DNA of 64,000 nucleotides, taken from Vulcanimicrobiota bacterium. GTDB lineage: Bacteria; Vulcanimicrobiota; Vulcanimicrobiia; Vulcanimicrobiales; Vulcanimicrobiaceae. Within the stretch, counting starts at the first letter, position 1. Each line of letters begins with the position of its first letter. The notes under the pieces were generated by a model. That model worked only from the letters and a program-made list of their open reading frames with translations. It ran no database searches and was not told where the DNA came from. Made by a program: the position numbers and the translations under genes. The DNA lies in assembly GCA_003134035.1 (NCBI GenBank), contig PLAE01000249.1, positions 2,964 through 66,963 of the forward strand. Reading direction: 5' to 3'. Positions 2,989-53,277 of the stretch are shown here, in pieces.

Positions 2989-3244
2989 CTCGCGGCGTTC
3001 CAGGCGGCGCGCCGAGCTGTTTCCGAGGCTGACGCGCTGATTCCACCGGTCGCGATCGTATACTCCGAACACGCCGTATCGTTACCGTTCTACCTGCTGG
3101 GCCGCTCCACGGCGGTCAACGACGACCTCAAGGACTTCGAACCGCTGCCCGGGATCGCAAGTTGGTGGAACGCCTGGCAGTGGTCGATTTGACGGGTAGG
3201 CGGCAGGTTTCCCGATCCGGCAGCGGGCACGTCTGCAACTTTCG

Positions 3245-29517: not shown

Positions 29518-31578
29518 TTAAAGGCGCGCCGCCGGAACGGGTTCGGGTCGCGCGCGGCGCGCGACTGCCGAAACGTTGGGTATGGCGGGCCGAAAGGCGA
29601 GGAAGCCGAACAGGATCGCGCCCAGCGCGATTGCGAGCCCGGTCGTGTGCTCGCCGTCGCTAGGTCGCGCGGTCGACTGCGATGAGGCGGGCGATCTGTG
29701 CTTCGAGGCGGCGCAAGGCTTCGGCGTCGCCGACGAACTCGAACCGCAGGCGGGTGGCGAGATCGTCGTTCGATTCGGCGGCGATGCTGCGATAACGGCA
29801 GCCGCAGCGTTCGGAAAGATTGACGATCCGGGCAACCAGGCGCGGGTCGTTGACGGTCGCTTCGACCGTGATCGAAGCCGCCGCGGCGGCGGGCATGCCG
29901 GCACCGGCGCGCGTTCGGTCATCACGTCGTCGATCGATCCGCCGCCGGGGATCATCGGCCAAACGTTTTCGGCCGGATAGCAGGCGCAGTGCAATAGCGC
30001 CGGGCCGGGGATTCCGATGAGCCGCTGCAAGGCGGCGTCGAGATCGGCCGGCGCGTCGACGGTTTCGCTGCGGATCCCGTAGGCCGCCGCGATCGCCGCG
30101 AAATCGGGATTGTCCGACAGGTTCGTGGCCGAGTAGCGTTCGTCGTAGAAGAGCTCTTGCCACTGGCGCACCATGCCCAGGTTGCGGTTGTCGATCAGGA
30201 CGATCTTGACCGGCAGGCGGTAGCGCTTGAGGGTGGCGAGCTCCGTGAGCGACATTTGGAATCCGCCGTCGCCGACGATGCAGAACACCGGGCGCTCCGG
30301 ATGGGCGACCTGCGCGCCGACGGCGGCCGGGAAGCCGAAGCCCATCGCGCCCAGACCCGCCGAGGTCGCGAACGCGCGCGGTTCGCGCGGCCGGATGCGC
30401 TGCGCGGCCCACATTTGATGCTGTCCGACGTCGGTCGTCACCACGGCGTTGGCCGGAACGACCTCGAAGAACCGATCCAACACGGTCGTCGCCGAAAGAT
30501 TGTGCGCCGCGATCCGGTCGCAGGGCAGCGTCATCGCGCGGTCGGCTGCGGCGCGAGCCCAGGTGTCGAAACGCGGGGCGGGGTGATTCTCGAGTTCGTC
30601 GGCGAGCGCGGCCAGCGTAGCGGTGATATCGCCGGGCAACGTGACCTCGGCGGGAATGATCTTGTCGAATTCGCTGGGGTCGATATCGGCGTGGACGATC
30701 TTGGCGCCGCGGGCGAAGCGGTCGGTCCGGCCCGTTACCCGGTCGTCGAAGCGCATCCCGAGCGCGAAGAGCACGTCGCTTTCATGGACCGCCAGGTTCG
30801 CCGCCTTGGTGCCGTGCATGCCGAGCATGCCCAAATCGCGCCAATCGCCGGGAGCGACCGCTCCCAGGCCGTTGATGGTCGTCGTTTGCGGGGCGCCGGC
30901 CAGGCCCGCGAAGCGCCGGAAGGCGGCGACGGCCTCGGCACCGCGCACGCCTCCGCCGGCGATGAGAATCGGCCGTTCGGCCGCGCGCAGCAGAGCCACG
31001 GCGCGAACGATCGCCGCGCGATCCGGTTCGGCCTTGGGCTGGCGACCGGTGATTCGCGCCGGGCGCGGCGTTTGCGGCATCGCGGCTTTGAGCACATCCG
31101 TGGGAATGTCGACCAGAACGGGGCCCGGGCGGCCCGAGCGGGCCAGCGCGAAGGCCTCGGCGATCGCGGCCGGGATCTCGCCGGCGTTTCGCACGAGGAT
31201 GTTGTACTTGGTGACCGGCTGGGTGATGGCGCAGACGTCGGCTTCCTGGAAGCCGTCGGTGCCCATGAGGTTCGAGCGCACTTGACCGGTAATGGCCACG
31301 AGCGGGACGCTGTCCATGAAAGCGTCGAGCAGGCCGGTGACGAGGTTGGTGGCCCCGGGGCCGCTCGTCGCGCAACAGAGCCCGACGCGGCCCGTCGTCC
31401 GCGCGTAGCCGCTCGCCGCGAACACGGCCGCCGCTTCGTGACGGACGAGGTAGTGACGGAAATGCTCGTCTCCAAACATCGCATCGTAAAACGGCATGAT
31501 GGTGCCGCCCGGATATCCGAAAATCGCATCGGCGCCTTCGCGTTTACACGCCTCGAGTGCCGCCCTTGCCCCGTTCAC
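29518..31578 (-). CDS. ilvB: Acetolactate synthase large subunit (ORF continues ~130 codons past the end of homology)
   Basis: GTG 31578 follows GAAAGGA. 'FGYPGG', 'GPGATN' and 'IVGDGGFQM' (ThDP motif) are present. Recognisable ALS sequence ends near 29914 ('GGGSIDDVMTE'), but the first in-frame stop is at 29518. Confidence 0.85.
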   Translation of the reverse strand: MNGARAALEACKREGADAIFGYPGGTIMPFYDAMFGDEHFRHYLVRHEAAAVFAASGYARTTGRVGLCCATSGPGATNLVTGLLDAFMDSVPLVAITGQVRSNLMGTDGFQEADVCAITQPVTKYNILVRNAGEIPAAIAEAFALARSGRPGPVLVDIPTDVLKAAMPQTPRPARITGRQPKAEPDRAAIVRAVALLRAAERPILIAGGGVRGAEAVAAFRRFAGLAGAPQTTTINGLGAVAPGDWRDLGMLGMHGTKAANLAVHESDVLFALGMRFDDRVTGRTDRFARGAKIVHADIDPSEFDKIIPAEVTLPGDITATLAALADELENHPAPRFDTWARAAADRAMTLPCDRIAAHNLSATTVLDRFFEVVPANAVVTTDVGQHQMWAAQRIRPREPRAFATSAGLGAMGFGFPAAVGAQVAHPERPVFCIVGDGGFQMSLTELATLKRYRLPVKIVLIDNRNLGMVRQWQELFYDERYSATNLSDNPDFAAIAAAYGIRSETVDAPADLDAALQRLIGIPGPALLHCACYPAENVWPMIPGGGSIDDVMTERAPVPACPPPRRLRSRSKRPSTTRAWLPGSSIFPNAAAAVIAASPPNRTTISPPACGSSSSATPKPCAASKHRSPASSQSTARPSDGEHTTGLAIALGAILFGFLAFRPAIPNVSAVARRARPEPVPAARL
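29660..29896 (-). CDS. Acetolactate synthase small (regulatory) subunit-like ACT domain protein
   Basis: ATG 29896 lies within ORF 29660..30412. 'ITVEATVNDPRLVARIVNLSERCGCRYRSIAAES...LRFEFVGDAEALRRLEAQIARLIAV' fits the IlvN/IlvM ACT pattern. It lies out of frame inside the tail of the ilvB ORF. Confidence 0.6.
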   Translation of the reverse strand: MPAAAAASITVEATVNDPRLVARIVNLSERCGCRYRSIAAESNDDLATRLRFEFVGDAEALRRLEAQIARLIAVDRAT

Positions 31579-31616
31579 TTCAGTGTCCTTTCGGCTTTCG
31601 AGAAAACTCGTCGGCC

Positions 31617-31654
31617 TAGTAAAAAGCCCCTCGCCACGTTTCTGGCGAGGGGCT
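31617..31654 (-). terminator. Intrinsic terminator / attenuator in the ilvB leader
   Basis: 12-bp stem AGCCCCTCGCCA/TGGCGAGGGGCT with a 6-nt loop, followed by TTTTT on the minus strand. It lies 47 nt upstream of the ilvB GTG. Confidence 0.7.
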
Positions 31655-31677
31655 CTCACAGTTAGCGCTCGTCGCGT

Positions 31678-31758
31678 CTACGTGAAAGCTGCTCGCCGCC
31701 CAAGAAGGACTGCAAGTCGAAGGCTAACGACGACCGGAATCGAGCTGAGCTCAAACAT
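31678..31758 (-). CDS. Putative ilv leader peptide (MFELSSIPVVVSLRLAVLLGRRAAFT)
   Basis: 26-codon ORF between the promoter-like element and the terminator. 9 of 13 central residues are Ile, Val or Leu. Confidence 0.5.
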   Translation of the reverse strand: MFELSSIPVVVSLRLAVLLGRRAAFT

Positions 31759-31771
31759 GATGTTCCCAGGT

Positions 31772-31800
31772 AAATAACATGGATTGCTTGCCGATGTCAA
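31772..31800 (-). promoter_or_regulatory. Putative promoter of the ilv leader
   Basis: Minus strand reads TTGACA, 17 nt, TTATTT. This is an AT-rich patch in a GC-rich context, about 13 nt upstream of the leader ATG. Confidence 0.4.
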
Positions 31801-31911
31801 CGCGTTATCGCGGGATTTACAAGCGCCGATGTGGGTGTCGCGTGGCCGCACAATGTGTGGGTATCAAGTTGGCTGCGCCCCATGCGTCGCTCTGGTTCGG
31901 CGCCGCCGCGG

Positions 31912-32451
31912 TCAGCGCACGCCGAGCAGCTTGGCCAAGATTTCGGTGCGTTTGGTGCTTTTGGTCTTGCGCGCGATGTTCTTCACGTGCGCGTGCACGG
32001 TCGTCGCCGCGATGCACAAGCGCTGCGCGATCTCGGCGGTCGTCATCCCGTGCAGCACGAGCCGCAGCACGTCGAGTTCGCGCAGCGAGAGGCCGTAGTT
32101 TTCGGACGCGTTCGCGAGCAGGTCGCGCGACTCGACGTGCTCGACGAAGAGCGCATAGAATTTGCCGCCGGAGCCGGTCAGCGGCGTTGCTCGCACAACC
32201 GTAGTGGGCGACATGAGAGCGAAGACCTCGCTCTCCTTACCGGCTTCGATCTCGCCGATCAACTGCGCGGTTTGAGCCGACGAAAACAACATCGCGACCG
32301 AATCGGCATCGGCGGGATCGCCCGACGTCATCAGAATCTGTCCTGACGCGTCGACGATGACGAAGCGCGGCGTCCGACGGCGACGCGCCGTGGCAATGGC
32401 TTCGATTCCCGGTTCCCCTGCGGGTTCCGCGTCATTAGGCTTGAGCATCAA
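31912..32451 (-). CDS. LuxR/GerE-family transcriptional regulator
   Basis: C-terminal 'LSLRELDVLRLVLHGMTTAEIAQRLCIAATTVHAHVKNIARK' is a GerE HTH. The N-terminal domain was not recognised. Confidence 0.8.
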   Translation of the reverse strand: MMLKPNDAEPAGEPGIEAIATARRRRTPRFVIVDASGQILMTSGDPADADSVAMLFSSAQTAQLIGEIEAGKESEVFALMSPTTVVRATPLTGSGGKFYALFVEHVESRDLLANASENYGLSLRELDVLRLVLHGMTTAEIAQRLCIAATTVHAHVKNIARKTKSTKRTEILAKLLGVR

Positions 32452-32942
32452 TCATTCACCGGGGAGAACGCGAGAAAAATCCGCGTCGTCAGGCGGGCCC
32501 GCCGGGGACAAGTACCCGGTACCGTAGTCATCGGCACGGAACTCCCCCGCCAGCACAGGCACCCCAGAAACGGCGCAGTTTCCGAATTGGTTCTACCTGG
32601 TTGCGCGTTCAAACTTGACACATTGGGGCCAAATCATCGTTCGTCCCCTTTTTTGGTAGGAGGCCGGACCTGCCGAGTGTGTTTCGCCGCGTAACGTCAG
32701 CTGTTCCGCCCGAGCAAACATTTTAGGACAAAATTGGGAACAAAAGCCCTTCCGAACGGTTACCGATGGGAGTCCGATTCGCTTGGCTGTTCCGCTCCGA
32801 CGGTCAGTCTGCCCTTTCGTCCTGGGGCCTTGGAGAGCCAAATCGGGGCGCGGCCCGGGCGGCGCCGGAAGCGGCCACGGGTCTCTGGGCCGCCTTGCGC
32901 GGGGCATGAGGTCGCGACCGCCGCCACCGCCAAGAGCCGGGC

Positions 32943-33620
32943 ATGAACATCGTCATTACCGGAGCCAATCGCGGCATTGGACTCGCGCTGGCGTCGCGTT
33001 ACGCGGCGCGCCCGGACGCCGTCGTCTTCGCGCTCGCCCGTGATCCGGCCGCGCCCGAGCTGCACGCCCTCGCGGCCGCGCGGGCCGGTCGCGTTCGGCC
33101 GCTGGCCCTGGACGTGCGCGATACGCAGGCAATCGACGCGCTGCCCAGTGCGCTGGGAGTCGATTCGATCGACCTGCTGATCAACAACGCCGGTGTGCCG
33201 GCCCCCAGCGACTTCGGCGCGATAAGCGGTGCGGAACTCAACGCGGTCTTCGCCGTCAATACGTTTGCGCCGCTGCTCATCACGCAAGCGCTGCGCGACC
33301 GGCTGGGAACCGGTTCGAAAGTCGTCAACATCACCTCGGTGCTCGGTTCGATCGCGCGCGCCGGAGCCGACTATTTAACCTACGGTATGAGCAAAGCCGC
33401 GCTCAACATGCTCAGCAAAAAGCTGGCCCTCGAATTCGAGTCCGCCGGTGTCGCGGTGCTCGCGCTGCACCCGGGATGGGTGCAGACACGCATGGGCGGA
33501 TCGGGAGCCGCGCTCGACGTCGACACGGCAGCCGATGGAATGGTGCGGGTCATCGACGCGTTTTCACTGGCGCGCAGCGGGGCGTATCTTACCTACGACG
33601 GCAGCGAGCTGCCGTGGTAA
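32943..33620 (+). CDS. Short-chain dehydrogenase/reductase (CsgA/C-factor-like subgroup)
   Basis: 'ITGANRGIG', 'NNAG' and 'YGMSKAAL' are present. Confidence 0.8.
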   Translation: MNIVITGANRGIGLALASRYAARPDAVVFALARDPAAPELHALAAARAGRVRPLALDVRDTQAIDALPSALGVDSIDLLINNAGVPAPSDFGAISGAELNAVFAVNTFAPLLITQALRDRLGTGSKVVNITSVLGSIARAGADYLTYGMSKAALNMLSKKLALEFESAGVAVLALHPGWVQTRMGGSGAALDVDTAADGMVRVIDAFSLARSGAYLTYDGSELPW

Positions 33621-35323: not shown

Positions 35324-37483
35324 ATGACCACGCCGACCGCGCACGGACCGAATGAAGCTCCCGAGCCGCCCGGCCGGGAGCTTTTTCCATCCGTGACCAT
35401 TCGGCCCGCGACGCGTCTGACCGGTTCGCCGGCGATCCCGGGCGACAAGTCGATCTCGCACCGGATGCTGATGTTCGGCGCGCTGGCGCACGGCAAGACG
35501 CACATCACGAACCTGCTCGATTCCGCCGACGTGCGTTCGACGCGCGCGGTGCTCGAGGCGCTTGGGGTGCCGATCGCCGACGAGGGCGCGACCGTCATCG
35601 TCCACGGCCGCGGGGCCGAGGCGCTGCGCGCACCGGCGGCGGTGCTCGACTGCGGGAATTCGGGCACCACGATGCGCCTGATGGCGGGCATCCTGGCGGG
35701 CTTGCCGTTCGCGACCCGGCTGGACGGGGACGATTCGCTGCGCTCGCGGCCGATGCGGCGCATCGCTGAACCGCTGCGCGCGCTGGGCGCCTCGATCGAC
35801 CTTGGGCCGGGGGATCGCGCCCCGATCGCGATCGCCGGACGGGCGCTCACGGCGGCGCGCTACGACTTGCCCCTGCCCAGCGCGCAAGTCAAGAGCGCGC
35901 TATTGCTCGCCGCGTTGAGCGCGCAGGGTGAGACGGTGGTCGGCGGCGAGTTGGGCGGCCGCGACCATACCGAACGGTTGCTTTGGCATTTCGGGGTCGA
36001 CCTCAAGCTGAACGGAACGCTGCGCCTGCGTGGCGGGCAGAAACTGCGCGCGGCCGATCTGCGCGTTCCCGGCGATCCGTCGTCGGCCGCGTTTTGGCTC
36101 GCGGCGGCGACGATCGTGCCGAACAGCTCGGTGCAGCTCTACGACGTCGGAATCAATCCGACGCGGATGGGATTCGTGCGTGTGCTCCAGCGGATGGGCG
36201 CGCACATCACGGTCACGCGTTCGCACGACGATTGCGAGCCGGTCGGCACGCTGCTGGCCGAACATGCGGTGCTGCGGGCCGCCACGATCGGGGCCGACGA
36301 AGTCCCGGCGCTCATCGACGAGTTGCCGCTCATCGCCGTGCTCGCGACATACGCCCAGGGCGTTACCGAGGTGCGCGGCGCGAAAGAACTGCGGGTGAAG
36401 GAAAGCGACCGGATCGAAGCGATCGCGGTCAACCTGCGTGCGATGGGCGCCCAGATCGAGGTGCTCGAGGACGGCTTTCGGATCGCCGGACCGCAGCCGC
36501 TGCACGGCGCGGCGATCCGGAGCTTCGGCGATCATCGGATCGCGATGGCCTGCGCGATCGCGGCGCTGGGCGCGTCGTCGCCGTCGACGATCGACGATGC
36601 CGCGTGTGTCGCCATTTCGTATCCGGGCTTCTTCCCGACGTTGCGCTATCTGACCGGCGATCCGGTCCGCGCCGGCGTGCTCGGTGCGTCGCTGGCGCAC
36701 TCGCGCTCGCCCGAGATCTTCGCCTGGCTCGCGCGCGCCACCGGGACGAACATCGCGTACGAGCGGTTTGAACGCTCGGCCGGCGATGTCGCTGCGCTGT
36801 TCGCCGCGATCCGGCGCGACGCCGCGTACGTGGGCTGCAACGTCACGATTCCATATAAGGAGCGCGCCGCGGAACTGGTCGACCATCCGTCGCGCTCCGC
36901 CGCGATCGTCGGCGCGGTCAACGTGGTCGCCCGGCGCGCCGACGGCAGTCTCGACGGACATAACACCGACGTCACCGGCGTGCTCGCGACGCTCGACGCG
37001 CACGCGATCGATCTGCGCGGAAGGCGCGCCTGCGTGCTGGGCGCGGGCGGCGCGGCGGCCGCCGTCGTGTACGCGCTGGCCCAGCGCGGTCCGGCTGAGA
37101 TCGTCATCGTCAACCGCTCCCCCGAACGGGCGGCAGCCCTTATCGCGCGCTTCGCGCAGCAGTTGCCCGGGCTTGCGTTGCGGGCCGACCCGGCGCCGGA
37201 GGGCGCCTTCACGCTCGTCGTCGACGCGACGCCGGGCAGCGCGGCCCGGGTCGAAATCGCCCCGGGCGGCTGGGCTTTCGATCTGAAGTACGGCCGGATG
37301 CCGACGCCGCTGCTGGCGGCCGCGAACGCGGCGGGCGTGTCCACCATCGACGGCCTTGAGATGCTGGTCGCGCAAGCGCTCGCCACGTACGAAATTTGGT
37401 TTCGCGAGGGCCGGCCGTTCGAGCGCGAGGAGAAACGGCGGCTCACCGACGGGCTCCTCGCCCACCTCCACGCCGCGCCCTGA
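35324..37483 (+). CDS. aroA: Bifunctional EPSP synthase / shikimate 5-dehydrogenase fusion
   Basis: ATG 35324 follows GGAGAG. The N-terminal ~430 aa are AroA ('PGDKSISHR', 'LDCGNSGTTMRL', 'KESDRI'). The C-terminal ~270 aa are AroE ('HSRSPEIF', 'NVTIPYK', 'GHNTD', 'GAGGAA'). One uninterrupted frame. Confidence 0.88.
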   Translation: MTTPTAHGPNEAPEPPGRELFPSVTIRPATRLTGSPAIPGDKSISHRMLMFGALAHGKTHITNLLDSADVRSTRAVLEALGVPIADEGATVIVHGRGAEALRAPAAVLDCGNSGTTMRLMAGILAGLPFATRLDGDDSLRSRPMRRIAEPLRALGASIDLGPGDRAPIAIAGRALTAARYDLPLPSAQVKSALLLAALSAQGETVVGGELGGRDHTERLLWHFGVDLKLNGTLRLRGGQKLRAADLRVPGDPSSAAFWLAAATIVPNSSVQLYDVGINPTRMGFVRVLQRMGAHITVTRSHDDCEPVGTLLAEHAVLRAATIGADEVPALIDELPLIAVLATYAQGVTEVRGAKELRVKESDRIEAIAVNLRAMGAQIEVLEDGFRIAGPQPLHGAAIRSFGDHRIAMACAIAALGASSPSTIDDAACVAISYPGFFPTLRYLTGDPVRAGVLGASLAHSRSPEIFAWLARATGTNIAYERFERSAGDVAALFAAIRRDAAYVGCNVTIPYKERAAELVDHPSRSAAIVGAVNVVARRADGSLDGHNTDVTGVLATLDAHAIDLRGRRACVLGAGGAAAAVVYALAQRGPAEIVIVNRSPERAAALIARFAQQLPGLALRADPAPEGAFTLVVDATPGSAARVEIAPGGWAFDLKYGRMPTPLLAAANAAGVSTIDGLEMLVAQALATYEIWFREGRPFEREEKRRLTDGLLAHLHAAP

Positions 37484-37574
37484 CCTACCCCGGCCCGGCT
37501 CGAATCGAAATTCTCGACGGACGTCGGTTCGTGCACGCCGAACGCCCGGACGTCATGGTATTGGCCCACACGCG

Positions 37575-38744
37575 ATGAGCGCTCTGCGTTACCTCACAGC
37601 CGGCGAATCGCACGGCCGCGCGCTCGTCGGAATCATCGAAGGCGTGCCGGCCGGGCTGGCGCTCGACGTTCCATCCCTGCACGCCCAGCTCAAACGCCGC
37701 AAACTCGGCTACGGCCGCGGCAACCGGCAGACCATCGAGACCGACGAAGTCGAGATTCTCACCGGCGTCCGTTTCGGCGAAACGCTCGGCAGTCCGATTG
37801 CGCTTGTGATCGCGAATCGCGACTGGCGCGCCTGGACCGAGATCATGGCCGCCGAGCCGCCGATGCGCGAAGGGCGCCGCAAGGTGACCGTGCCGCGGCC
37901 GGGCCACGCCGACTACGTCGGCGGCCTCAAGTACGCCCACGGCGACATGCGCAACGTGCTCGAGCGGTCCAGCGCCCGCGAGACGGCGATGCGCGTCGCG
38001 CTGGGCAGCGTCGCCCGGGCCTTCCTCGCGGCTTTCGACATTCACATCGGCAGCCGGGTCGTCGCCGTCGGTTCGGTCAGCGATGCGCGGCCGCTCGACG
38101 TTGCGGTCGAAGATCTCAACGCGCGGCTGGACCAGCGGCCGTTGCGGGTCCTCGACGATGCGGCCGAATCCCGGATGGTCGCCGAGGTGGACGCCGCCAA
38201 AGCCGCCGGCGACACGCTGGGCGGCATCTTCGAGGTCTACGCGTCGAACGTCGTGGTCGGGCTGGGCAGCTACGTCCAGTGGGACCGGCGGCTCGAGGCC
38301 GAGATCGGCCGCCAATTCCTGAGCCTCAATGCGATCAAGGGTGTCGAGGTCGGCGGTGGCTTCACCAGCGCCGTTCGCCGCGGGTCGCAAGTGCACGACG
38401 AGTATCTGCCCGGCGACGACGAACGCTTGCGCTACGCGAGCAACAACTCGGGCGGCATCGACGGCGGGATGAGCACCGGCGAATTGCTCGTGGTGCGCGC
38501 CGGGATGAAGCCGATTTCGACGTTGATGAAGCCGCTGCGGTCGGTGGACCTCACCACCGGTGAGGCGACCAGCGCGCACATCGAGCGTTCCGACACGTGT
38601 GCCGTGCCGGCCGCCGCCGTCATCGGCGAGTCGCTCCTCGCGCTGGTGCTCGCCGAAGCGCTGCTCGAAAAGTTCGGCGGCGACAGCATGGCCGAGATTC
38701 TTCCGCGGGTCCGCGAGTGGCAGCGGCTTGCCGTCCGACACTAA
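37575..38744 (+). CDS. aroC: Chorismate synthase
   Basis: ATG 37575 (MSALRYLTAGESHG). 'RPGHADY' and 'RSSARETA' are present. Confidence 0.92.
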   Translation: MSALRYLTAGESHGRALVGIIEGVPAGLALDVPSLHAQLKRRKLGYGRGNRQTIETDEVEILTGVRFGETLGSPIALVIANRDWRAWTEIMAAEPPMREGRRKVTVPRPGHADYVGGLKYAHGDMRNVLERSSARETAMRVALGSVARAFLAAFDIHIGSRVVAVGSVSDARPLDVAVEDLNARLDQRPLRVLDDAAESRMVAEVDAAKAAGDTLGGIFEVYASNVVVGLGSYVQWDRRLEAEIGRQFLSLNAIKGVEVGGGFTSAVRRGSQVHDEYLPGDDERLRYASNNSGGIDGGMSTGELLVVRAGMKPISTLMKPLRSVDLTTGEATSAHIERSDTCAVPAAAVIGESLLALVLAEALLEKFGGDSMAEILPRVREWQRLAVRH

Positions 38745-51116: not shown

Positions 51117-51153
51117 GGAAAGAAAAGAAGCCTCGCCGGGCCGGCGAGGCTTC
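51117..51153 (-). terminator. Intrinsic terminator / attenuator in the cysH leader
   Basis: Minus strand reads GAAGCCTCGCC-GGCCC-GGCGAGGCTTC (11-bp stem) followed by TTTTCTTT. It lies about 40 nt upstream of cysH coding sequence. Confidence 0.7.
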
Positions 51154-51195
51154 ATCTCACGAACGTTTTGGCAGACGTTTTATCGCGTGACGAAC

Positions 51196-51258
51196 TTATG
51201 CCGGTCCGACGGAATCGCCGAAGCAACGACATGGGCAACAGCATAATACGTACTGCAT
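51196..51258 (-). CDS. Poly-cysteine mini-ORF (MQYVLCCCPCRCFGDSVGPA), putative Cys-sensing leader peptide
   Basis: 20 codons, with 5 Cys among 7 consecutive codons. The ATG lies 7 nt after the -10 element, suggesting a leaderless mRNA. It sits between the promoter and the terminator. Confidence 0.55.
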   Translation of the reverse strand: MQYVLCCCPCRCFGDSVGPA

Positions 51259-51356: not shown

Positions 51357-51365
51357 CCACGCGAT

Positions 51366-51449
51366 ATGACGCAACCGCCCTTTGGCTGTCCGCGTTTGGG
51401 TTGTTGTCGCGTAATGCGGCGGCGTGTCATGTCGGCTTTGTTGCCCTGA
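51366..51449 (+). CDS. Cys-containing mini-ORF (MTQPPFGCPRLGCCRVMRRRVMSALLP), possible leader peptide
   Basis: 27 codons with 3 Cys, including a CC pair. It starts about 10 nt after the candidate -10 and ends 19 nt before a terminator-like hairpin. Confidence 0.4.
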   Translation: MTQPPFGCPRLGCCRVMRRRVMSALLP

Positions 51450-51467
51450 GGGCCGCCGTCGACATGA

Positions 51468-51505
51468 ACCTCCGCCGATGTCCGGCGAAGGTTCTTTTTC
51501 TTGTT
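51468..51505 (+). terminator. Terminator-like hairpin in the sir leader
   Basis: ACCTCCGCCG-ATGTC-CGGCGAAGGT (9 bp with 1 mismatch) followed by TCTTTTTCTTGTT. It lies about 120 nt upstream of the sir ATG. Confidence 0.55.
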
Positions 51506-51635: not shown

Positions 51636-53277
51636 CGACGTCGAAGCCGTCAAGGCGAATAGCCAAGGGCTGCGCGGCCCAATCCCGGACGAATTGCAGG
51701 CGCCCACCGACCATTTCGGTGATGAATCGTCGTTACTGCTGAAGTTTCACGGGGTCTATCAGCAAGACGACCGCGATGCGCGAAAGACGATGCGCGAGCG
51801 GGGCGCAGGCCGAGATTTCTCGTTCATGGTGCGGACCAAGAATCCGGGCGGTTTTCTACCGGCGGCCTTCTATTTGGCAATCGATCGGCTCGCCGACGAG
51901 TACGGCAACGGAACGATCCGGGTAACGACGCGCGCCGGTCTGCAGTTGCACGGCGTCCGCAAATCGAATTTGCACGAGGTCATCGCCCAAATCAATGCCC
52001 ACCTAGGTTCGACGCTGGGCGCCTGCGGCGACATCAACCGCAACGTGACGGCCGCGCCGTTTCCGTTCGCTGCGCCGGAGTATGCGGCCGCGCGGACCGC
52101 GGCGGTGGAGATCGCCGAGCTGCTGACCCCACGCGCCACCGCGTACTATGAGATTTGGCAAGACGGGGAAGTCGTGCACTCGACCGAGGCGGCCGAAGAT
52201 CCGATTTACGGCAAAGCGTTTCTGCCGCGCAAGTTCAAGATCGCCGTCGCCGTGCCGGGCGACAACAGCGTCGATCTCTACACGAACGATTTGGGCGTCG
52301 TCCCGCTCGTCGACGACGCGGGCACGCTGCTCGGCTTCAATCTCACCGTCGGCGGCGGCTTGGGCAATACCCACGGCAAAACCGCGACTTATCCGCGGCT
52401 GGCCGATGAATTCGGCTTTGTGCCGCCGGCGCTGCTGCTCGATGCGGTGAAGGCGATCGTCCTCGTCCAGCGCGATCACGGCGATCGAACCAATCGCCGC
52501 CACGCGCGGCTCAAGTATCTGATCGCCGATCGCGGCCTGGCCTGGTTCCGCGCGCAGGTCGAGGCCCAAGCCGGCTTTTCGCTCGAGGCCTGGCGCCCGC
52601 TGCAGGCCTGGACCGCGCCGCAGTTCCTGGGTTGGAACGCCGCCGGCGACGGCACCTGGTTTTACGGCGTCTCGATCGCGAACGGCCGCGTGCGCGACGG
52701 GCTCAAGGCGGCGCTGCGCGACATCGTCGCCGAACTCGGCTGCGATCTCATCGCCACACCCGATCAAAACATCGTCATCGGCGGCATCGCGCCGGCCCTG
52801 CGGCCACGGATCGACGCGATCTTCGCCGCGCACGGCGTGGCCGATCCGCAAATGATCTCGGTGCGCGAAAAAGTCGCCATGGCGTGTCCCGCGCTGCCGA
52901 CGTGCGGCCTCGCGCTGGCCGAGTCCGAACGCGTGCTGCCCAAGCTCGTGGCCGAGATCGATGCGCTGCTCGAGCGGCTGGGCGTCGGCGACCCGGTCAC
53001 GATCCGAATGACCGGCTGTCCCAACGGCTGCGCACGGCCGTACATGGGCGAGATCGGGATCGTCGGCGTCAGCGCCGATCGCTACACGCTTTACCTTGGC
53101 GGTAATCCCGCCTCGACCCGGCTCAACCAAGTCTTCGCCGAAGGCGTGCGCACCGCAGAAATCGCCGGAGTGCTGGCGCCGCTCTTCGAACGCTGGTCCC
53201 GCGAGCGCGCGGCCGGCGAGCCGTTCGGCGACTTCTGCGTGCGCGCCGTCCTCGATCGCGAGAAAGTCGCATCCTAG
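51625..53277 (+). CDS. sir: Sulfite reductase hemoprotein (ferredoxin-dependent NirA/Sir type)
   Basis: ATG 51625 (MSKLDVEAVK). 'LKFHGVYQQDDRD', 'ACGDINRNV' and 'MTGCPNGCARP' (siroheme/4Fe-4S Cys cluster) are present. Confidence 0.88.
   Translation: MSKLDVEAVKANSQGLRGPIPDELQAPTDHFGDESSLLLKFHGVYQQDDRDARKTMRERGAGRDFSFMVRTKNPGGFLPAAFYLAIDRLADEYGNGTIRVTTRAGLQLHGVRKSNLHEVIAQINAHLGSTLGACGDINRNVTAAPFPFAAPEYAAARTAAVEIAELLTPRATAYYEIWQDGEVVHSTEAAEDPIYGKAFLPRKFKIAVAVPGDNSVDLYTNDLGVVPLVDDAGTLLGFNLTVGGGLGNTHGKTATYPRLADEFGFVPPALLLDAVKAIVLVQRDHGDRTNRRHARLKYLIADRGLAWFRAQVEAQAGFSLEAWRPLQAWTAPQFLGWNAAGDGTWFYGVSIANGRVRDGLKAALRDIVAELGCDLIATPDQNIVIGGIAPALRPRIDAIFAAHGVADPQMISVREKVAMACPALPTCGLALAESERVLPKLVAEIDALLERLGVGDPVTIRMTGCPNGCARPYMGEIGIVGVSADRYTLYLGGNPASTRLNQVFAEGVRTAEIAGVLAPLFERWSRERAAGEPFGDFCVRAVLDREKVAS

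Follow-up and report, generated by a model that had tools for sequence, protein, structure and literature searches.

The leader upstream of the ilvG-type acetolactate synthase gene

The sequence considered here, referred to as the window, is a stretch of 64,000 nucleotides (nt) of contig PLAE01000249.1 (GenBank assembly GCA_003134035.1, positions 2,964 to 66,963 of the forward strand) from a bacterium of the Vulcanimicrobiaceae, a family that NCBI places within Vulcanimicrobiota, alias Eremiobacterota. The genome is a 4.7-Mb metagenome-assembled genome (MAG) in 276 contigs with 65% G+C. On its minus strand the window carries a gene for the large subunit of a biosynthetic acetolactate synthase (ALS) of the ilvB/ilvG type, preceded by a promoter, a mini open reading frame (mini-ORF) with a run of Ile, Leu and Val codons, and an intrinsic terminator, which together very probably form a leader-peptide attenuator responding to branched-chain amino acids (BCAA). 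The parts on which an earlier note on this DNA had built its case—TTGACA, a 17-nt spacer, TTATTT, the ATG at 31758 and a stop at 31678—are all found where it had placed them, and the leader reads as follows, every feature lying on the minus strand.

31795..31800 (-): -35 hexamer TTGACA, by direct reading
31771..31779 (-): extended -10 element TGt-TATTTA; the TTATTT of the earlier note is 31777-31772
31678..31758 (-): leader mini-ORF MFELSSIPVVVSLRLAVLLGRRAAFT, 26 codons plus TAG (ATG 31758; TAG 31680-31678)
31702..31740 (-): regulatory codons I7 ATT, V9-V11 GTC GTC GTT, L13, L15 CTT, V17 GTC, L18-L19 CTT CTT
31621..31657 (-): intrinsic terminator, stem GAGAGCCCCUCGCCA / UGGCGAGGGGCUUUU, loop GAAACG, U-run to 31621
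31586..31590 (-): Shine-Dalgarno sequence AAGGA of the ALS gene, by direct reading
29518..31578 (-): biosynthetic ALS large subunit gene (ilvB/ilvG type), GTG 31578; the catalytic part ends near 29911

The spacing of 17 nt separates TTGACA (31800-31795) from TTATTT (31777-31772), though judged by comparison with related leaders the -10 element is better read as the extended form TGt-TATTTA than as TTATTT: TGnTATTTA is kept in three relatives of the same genus and TGnTAnnn in other genera of the family. At the matching relative place upstream, TTGAC(A/G/T) is present in 37 of the 37 leader units examined. Ile, Leu and Val account for 10 of the 26 codons of the mini-ORF, and a spacer of 20 nt leads from its stop codon to the terminator hairpin. 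This is the 12-bp hairpin with U-run of the earlier note, with core arms AGCCCCTCGCCA (31654-31643) and TGGCGAGGGGCT (31636-31625) around the loop GAAACG, and RNAfold extends its stem to GAGAGCC...GGCUUUU, giving 15 pairs at -29.5 kcal/mol. Stem and UUUUU lie 43-46 nt upstream of the ilvB GTG at 31578; the GTG follows the stem after 46 nt instead of the 47 nt first given.

Folding of the 196-nt leader is better than that of its own shuffles (z = -2.7). A consensus promoter and terminator scan of the site flagged neither a promoter nor a terminator; it missed the former because its -10 rule requires A at position 2 and T at position 6, and the latter because the G-U/A-U extension of the stem consumes the T-run. 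Searching positions 30500-33000 against Rfam with cmscan at E <= 10 returned only spurious matches to mir-81 and Hammerhead_1, and the leader had no match in that search to the curated leader or attenuator families (e.g. Leu_leader RF00512) or to the T-box.

Alternative pairings and the passage of the ribosome

The terminator 5' arm has a second potential partner within the end of the mini-ORF. With the regulatory codons taken as segment 1, folding defines the following further elements.

31681..31697 (-): segment 2, antiterminator 5' strand GGCGAG-CA-GCUUUCACG (codons RRAAFT), from structure folding
31644..31660 (-): segment 3, antiterminator 3' strand UGUGAGAGC-CC-CUCGCC, from structure folding
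31692..31716 (-): weak 1:2 hairpin, CUUGC-A-GUCC with GGGC-G-GCGAG, in the full-length minimum-free-energy fold

Segment 2 comprises the final 17 nt of the mini-ORF, GGCGAGCAGCUUUCACG, ending 1 nt before the stop codon, and segment 3 consists of a 6-nt flank and most of the terminator 5' arm. The two pair in two parts, with 9 pairs between GCUUUCACG (31689-31681) and UGUGAGAGC (31660-31652) and 6 pairs between GGCGAG (31697-31692) and CUCGCC (31649-31644), joined by a 2x2 internal loop. It had been noticed before that the last leader codons, GGG CGG CGA GCA GCT, mimic the terminator 3' arm, and they do repeat its GGCGAG..GCT; their proposed role as an antiterminator strand stands as well, while the restriction of the pairing to GGCGAG/GCT does not, the helix being one of 15 pairs in two parts. 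Antiterminator and terminator are mutually exclusive in the predicted folds, which is the outcome that the earlier note had expected of folding this region. The antiterminator reaches -16.7 kcal/mol, where 200 dinucleotide shuffles of the upstream segment give -7.5 +/- 2.5 kcal/mol (z = -3.8, 0 of 200 shuffles as good), and those of the genus as a whole give z of -3.2 to -3.8 (0-1 of 200), the pairing being exceptional in most more distant relatives too.

The effect of a translating ribosome was simulated by forcing 27 nt around the A site to remain unpaired and cutting the RNA before the terminator 3' arm, the readout being the ensemble free energy that sequesters the terminator 5' arm. Sequestration amounts to 15-21 kcal/mol with the A site on any of codons 1-18, which include I7, V9-11, L13, L15, V17 and L18, falls to 11 kcal/mol on codons 19-20, and is down to 5-7 kcal/mol once the A site has moved to the last six codons or to the stop. 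A fall of this kind as the ribosome nears the stop recurs at 18 of 18 loci (the window's own and those of 17 relatives, introduced below), bearing out the suggestion that a ribosome at the stop codon would block the antiterminator.

Without a ribosome the value for the window's locus is -16.4, and it ranges from -9 to -16.4 within the genus, the antiterminator still forming despite the weak 1:2 hairpin, which overlaps the first part of segment 2 as well as the Leu and Val codons. The value drops to 0-6 in most other genera, where segment 1, with its Ile, Leu and Val codons, pairs with segment 2. For the window's own genus RNA folding gives no strong protector hairpin of the 1:2 type, and an untranslated leader would therefore read through, unlike in the classical trp design. 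As modelled, the version found in this genus is a two-state switch with read-through as its default, and that of the distant relatives has the classical three-state layout.

Conservation and covariation among relatives

A protein search of 40 relatives found an orthologue of the ALS gene in 19 genomes; one match was cut at a contig end, leaving 18 loci, of which 4 belong to the window's genus (its own locus included), 9 to other genera of the family and 5 to a second family of the order. All 18 have a -35 element of the TTGAC type, a -10 element of the TGnTA type, a mini-ORF of 19-27 codons with an Ile/Leu/Val run (the leader peptides MNSSLVLVVSLRLAVLIGRRAAFT, MFSALLLVVVSLIRQPVVRRR, MSSQILVVSLILVRLEWGRWG and MFAHNLVLVVVILISRS... 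are examples), and a strong hairpin before the gene, of -18 to -34 kcal/mol with a U-rich tail and 22-51 nt upstream of ilvB. A covariance model built from the leader sequences was matched in 179 genomes out of a sample of 301 from the phylum, and its strong matches fall almost wholly within the window's family and its sister family. A further 18 top matches of the model were inspected, and every one lies directly before an ilvB orthologue and encodes a peptide with an Ile/Leu/Val run. Promoter, Ile/Leu/Val mini-ORF, hairpin with U-rich tail and ilvB are thus found together at 36 of 36 orthologous loci examined, and the conservation of the leader ORF, which the earlier note had put forward as a check, is confirmed.

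The form of this conservation points to the RNA. Leaders of the genus share 94% of their nucleotides over the last 13 codons, as compared with 80% for the first 900 nt of ilvB and 57% for its third codon positions, and the constraint therefore appears to act on the RNA rather than on the peptide, whose sequence outside the Ile/Leu/Val run is poorly conserved. The gene upstream of the leader, of the LuxR type, is common to the genus only, so that the element goes with ilvB rather than serving as terminator for the gene before it.

Of the 9 consensus pairs of the terminator, 7 have undergone compensatory changes among the 18 sequences. The MAFFT alignment of these leaders was too loose for antiterminator covariation, with RNAalifold recovering the terminator only, and a subgroup of 12 sequences from other genera (alignment A2) was therefore used. 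Here pairing in the 2:3 helix stands at 87.7%, slid controls giving 32-49%, and two of its pairs have compensatory changes; the 1:2 helix is 94.8% paired, compared with 16-46%, with one compensatory pair. A change from U to C in column 38 of segment 2 is accompanied by changes from A to G in both of its partners, column 26 in segment 1 and column 102 in segment 3; on the evidence of this alignment, such a joint change is the pattern predicted by mutually exclusive pairings.

Codon usage and initiation of the leader ORF

Judged against a codon background from about 690 long ORFs of this genome, in which CTT makes up 4% of Leu, ATT 13% of Ile and GTT 9% of Val codons, the leaders favour codons that are otherwise rare. 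CTT provides 4 of the 5 Leu codons in the window's leader, and across the 18 leaders CTT accounts for 39 of 75 Leu, ATT for 24 of 30 Ile and GTT for 20 of 66 Val codons, the background frequencies being those of this genome. Rare or wobble-read codons at the sensing positions would fit what is expected of a sensor that works by stalling.

Promoter geometry was taken from 37 leader units (L001-L021, L103-L134). The spacer between -35 and -10 is 16-19 nt long in these, and the ATG follows the -10 element after 7-16 nt (median 8-9), so that most of these mini-ORFs must be leaderless. In the window the -10 element ends 12 nt before the ATG, which would leave a 5' untranslated region of about 5 nt, and the sequence holds no Shine-Dalgarno motif for the mini-ORF. 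Judging from this geometry, leaderless initiation seems to be the rule for the sensing ORFs of this family.

Proposed mechanism and alternative explanations

By far the most probable explanation, in our view, is ribosome-mediated transcription attenuation through the leader peptide, by which the ilvG-type ALS gene and the small ACT-like gene that follows would be expressed according to how much charged Val- and Leu-tRNA, and less strongly Ile-tRNA, is available. The sequence elements, their conservation, the mutual exclusivity of the folds, the covariation in relatives and the codon bias are all observed in silico, and from them we infer the start site, the translation of the mini-ORF, termination and the response to BCAA. 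Transcription would start a few nt before the ATG at 31758, and a ribosome would begin the 26-codon mini-ORF at once. When BCAA-tRNAs are plentiful, the ribosome would reach the TAG and cover the 17 nt upstream of it (GGCGAGCAGCUUUCACG), leaving the terminator 5' arm free, so that the 15-pair hairpin and U-run could form and RNA polymerase would stop near 31621. When they are short, the ribosome would stall on the rare GTT, GTC, CTT and ATT codons among codons 7-18, leaving the 17 nt free to pair with UGUGAGAGCCCCUCGCC once this has been made; the terminator would then be blocked and ilvG transcribed. BCAA attenuation of ilvB, as originally proposed, is supported in so far as the sequence-level predictions open to an in silico test were borne out: a conserved mini-ORF with its Ile/Leu/Val run, a conserved and covarying terminator, an antiterminator strand placed where a ribosome at the stop would mask it, rare codons at the regulatory positions, and an element that accompanies ilvB and not the gene upstream.

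Several points weigh against this explanation. With no Shine-Dalgarno sequence, the mini-ORF would have to be translated by leaderless or near-leaderless initiation, which is so far only presumed for this phylum. The antiterminator is not better than shuffles at 4 of the 18 loci at the chosen stall position, and background pairing is high in a genome of 65% G+C, shuffles reaching -5 to -10 kcal/mol. Sequences of the window's own genus are too alike for covariation on their own antiterminator, and this genus is also the one for which no strong 1:2 protector is predicted. Contigs of a peat metatranscriptome (X13) at the locus lie within the ilvB coding region only. Finally, for a similar ilvB leader of Streptomyces coelicolor, mutations of candidate regulatory codons are reported to have left regulation unchanged (PMC1262725).

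The last three of these—the genus without a strong 1:2 hairpin, the confinement of the metatranscriptome contigs to the coding region and the reported codon mutation without effect in S. coelicolor (PMC1262725)—would equally suit a unit that is conserved and regulatory but does not act by ribosome stalling, be it through a constitutive terminator, a protein or Rho/NusG, or through an effect of the mini-ORF on mRNA stability or translation of the kind suspected for ilvB of Streptomyces. We regard such a mechanism as unlikely: the placement of the antiterminator 5' strand relative to the stop codon recurs at 18 of 18 loci, one alignment column covaries with both of its alternative partners, and the bias towards rare codons falls specifically on Ile, Leu and Val, and none of these three features is explained by a non-ribosomal mechanism.

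It is less probable still that the mini-ORF encodes a functional small hydrophobic peptide, whether a membrane micro-protein or one acting in trans like peTrpL, with the hairpin as its own terminator and control of ilvG as incidental. The peptide does have a hydrophobic core followed by basic residues, as in a small membrane anchor, and trans functions of leader peptides are known from peTrpL; yet it is poorly conserved outside the Ile/Leu/Val run, and conservation within the genus is at the nucleotide level, third positions included. Moreover, the unit is always joined to ilvB, 22-51 nt upstream of it, and the consensus scan recognised no separate ilvB promoter. A role in trans would in any case not exclude attenuation.

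That a chance ORF has come to lie beside the terminator of the LuxR-type gene, without regulatory meaning, is scarcely credible, for although high-GC genomes are rich in spurious short ORFs and stems and the consensus scan did not flag the site, the unit is present at 36 of 36 orthologous loci, a LuxR-type gene stands upstream only in the genus, a promoter lies between that gene and the ORF, and the folding and shuffle statistics speak against chance. The chance ORF was accordingly rejected as effectively refuted by the comparative data, and so was a terminator of the LuxR-type gene, this gene being upstream only in the genus and the unit travelling with ilvB. A T-box or riboswitch was likewise rejected, no relevant Rfam family having been found at E <= 10.

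Relation to known attenuators

Leader-peptide attenuators responding to BCAA are established before the ilvGMEDA and ilvBN operons of enterobacteria. The ilvL and ivbL leaders of these operons in E. coli and Salmonella resemble the window's leader in having a promoter-proximal mini-ORF for Ile/Leu/Val (or Val/Leu) and an intrinsic terminator before the ALS large-subunit gene together with an alternative antiterminator pairing. The enzyme, too, has its best score with the model of ALS II (IlvG), and behind it comes a small IlvM-like ORF whose start overlaps it. In contrast to ilvL and ivbL, to which there is no detectable sequence or Rfam relationship, the window's leader is leaderless or near-leaderless, lacks a Shine-Dalgarno sequence and follows, in its own genus, a two-state design without a strong protector, and the window's operon holds ALS genes only. 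Known leaders were recovered with the gammaproteobacterial ilvB/G orthologues that were fetched, and Ile/Leu/Val leaders with terminators were seen among the fetched orthologues in Gammaproteobacteria, in Bryobacterales/Solibacteraceae and in some deltaproteobacterial MAGs.

Outside the enterobacteria, a close parallel is the ilvB1NC leader of Mycobacterium tuberculosis, where a BCAA-rich upstream ORF ('LVVI') precedes a Rho-independent terminator and a two-state model is experimentally supported, a ribosome at the stop occluding the antiterminator and a stalled ribosome permitting it; an abundant terminated leader RNA of about 120 nt has been seen (PMC13236596). The window's leader shares this two-state model, and both organisms are high in GC with many leaderless short ORFs. 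M. tuberculosis belongs to a different phylum, the likeness claimed is one of layout, the window's element is predicted only, and ilvG with a small ORF stands downstream instead of ilvB1-ilvN-ilvC. Actinobacterial ilvB leaders had been predicted earlier by Seliverstov et al. 2005 (PMC1262725). In Corynebacterium glutamicum, the ilvBNC attenuator or ilvB-II motif has a conserved upstream ORF with BCAA codons and a leader of three hairpins (PMC10272879, PMC11857589). Distant relatives of the window share its three-hairpin layout (1:2, 2:3, 3:4), but there is no Rfam or sequence match to ilvB-II, and the version of the window's own genus is without a stable first hairpin. A BCAA leader-peptide attenuator is also established in Staphylococcus aureus (PMC5794164). 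In the library that was searched, no paper connects Eremiobacterota with attenuators or leader peptides.

The comparison with these systems and the in silico evidence strongly support a conserved BCAA attenuator that is uncatalogued, having no Rfam family, and that would work in a well-known way. The mechanism is that of the textbook and no principle is changed; what is added is a predicted family of BCAA attenuators conserved in two families, the window's own and a sister family, of a soil and peat phylum scarcely known in culture, with predicted leaderless mini-ORFs serving as sensing ORFs outside Actinobacteria. For annotation, ilvG in these MAGs becomes predictable as Val/Leu-responsive.

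Similar units elsewhere in the genome

The genome was scanned with a stem matcher for sites at which a strong hairpin with a T-run is preceded by a mini-ORF of biased composition, and with the covariance model of the ilvB leader. The scan produced a second unit of the BCAA type, on contig C276 (4139-4280, minus strand), where TTGACG-17-TACAAA precedes MSVARRSLALLGRLALLVELREALL, a peptide containing 9 Leu; next come the hairpin AAGCCCCTCGCC...GGCGGGGGGCTT and its T-run, then an ORF of 18 codons and finally ilvC. The ilvB-leader model matches this ilvC leader at E = 5.6e-5.

Candidate leaders for two other amino acids are built alike. On contig C201 (plus strand, about 37480-37690) a candidate phenylalanine leader, MCRLTPTRFPDFSFAGPAARRCGWLSR (...FPDFSF...), with a promoter and a strong hairpin with T-run, lies 22 nt before a gene for a fused prephenate dehydratase and DAHP synthase. 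A candidate cysteine leader on contig C138 (minus strand, about 2995-3225 in reverse-strand numbering), MHRSWSVVGCRRCRCLFFRVPVKRR (...GCRRCRC...), has a TTGACA promoter and the hairpin GAGCCCCTCGC...GAGGGGCTT with a T-run and precedes cysE, the gene of serine O-acetyltransferase. The window itself contains two divergent Cys-rich mini-ORFs, MQYVLCCCPCRCFGDSVGPA at about 51118-51244 on the minus strand and MTQPPFGCPRLGCCRV... at 51365-51494 on the plus strand, each followed by a terminator; the ilvB-leader model matches the former weakly (E = 1e-3).

The Cys, Leu and Phe units of this genome and phylum are built on the plan of the ilvB leader: TTGAC as -35 and TGnTA as extended -10 element, the ATG of a short ORF 7-16 nt beyond the latter, cognate codons standing in a run within that ORF, and a GC hairpin that ends in a U-run. 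They differ from the ilvB leader in cognate codons and downstream genes, and are paralogous or convergent rather than the same element. The earlier suggestion that leader-peptide attenuation is used widely in this organism gains support from the like-built candidates before ilvC, cysE, the pheA-DAHP synthase fusion and the cys operons. Tentatively, the ilvG leader may go further and be one of a phylum-characteristic set of leaderless attenuators for BCAA (ilvG, ilvC/leu), cysteine (cys operons, cysE) and phenylalanine (pheA-DAHP synthase), a view for and against which we see almost equal grounds. In such a set the common plan would also place the ATG at the start site or a few nt behind it, and the cognate codons in the run would be rare ones. 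If it is correct, translation-coupled attenuation on leaderless transcripts would be the main form of amino-acid sensing in an almost uncultured phylum, and the regulon of such attenuators would be readable from sequence alone. The covariance model and the common building plan offer a route to mapping amino-acid regulons in these genomes.

The regulated genes and their neighbourhood

The assignment of the gene behind the leader as an ALS large subunit rests on TIGR00118 (649 bits, cut-off 538) and on the Pfam TPP_enzyme N, M and C domains; the highest score, 690 bits, comes from PRK08978, 'ALS 2 catalytic subunit', and lies below that model's cut-off of 738. Its tail is overlapped by a further reading frame.

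29660..29896 (-): 78-aa ORF overlapping the ALS tail in another frame, conserved in relatives of the same genus

This ORF matches Pfam ACT_5 at E = 0.0019 (18.4 bits, below the cut-off of 27) and no NCBIfam model, while its position and the overlap at its start resemble ilvG-ilvM. It is probably an IlvM-like small subunit with an ACT domain, an identity that is unconfirmed by profile matches. In three same-genus relatives the TGA of ilvG overlaps the ATG of the small ORF (ATGA, within GCATGA). The present assembly has GCATGC in place of GCATGA, followed by a GC-rich insertion of about 20 nt, and with ATGA thus changed to ATGC the ALS frame continues to 29518, running for about 130 codons over the small gene in the other frame. 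This read-on could be a real C-terminal extension or an error in the MAG consensus. On present annotation the regulated unit is taken to be an ilvG-like ALS gene with a small ACT-like ORF, not an ilvBNC operon.

Downstream of the ALS gene and the 78-aa ORF lies ileS (TIGR00392) in convergent orientation; the LuxR-type gene stands upstream of the leader. Sequence of the window is present in peat metagenomes. Contigs of X13 are 100% identical to the ALS coding region at 30582-30785 and 31237-31408, and three other metatranscriptomes yielded no contigs of the locus; the identity of the X13 contigs to the ilvB coding sequence points to expression of the gene in situ.

Among named relatives the nearest ilvG, with 66% amino-acid identity, is that of a Vulcanimicrobiaceae MAG (L023). 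There (600-1200) ilvG stands directly behind ilvC, with a 13-nt gap and no leader between them; its leader, if any, would be upstream of ilvC, so that the family is not uniform in gene order or in where regulation takes place. Another relative (G254, contig C115) has two matches to the leader model back to back, at 52260-52398 on the minus strand and 52499-52637 on the plus strand, about 100 nt apart.

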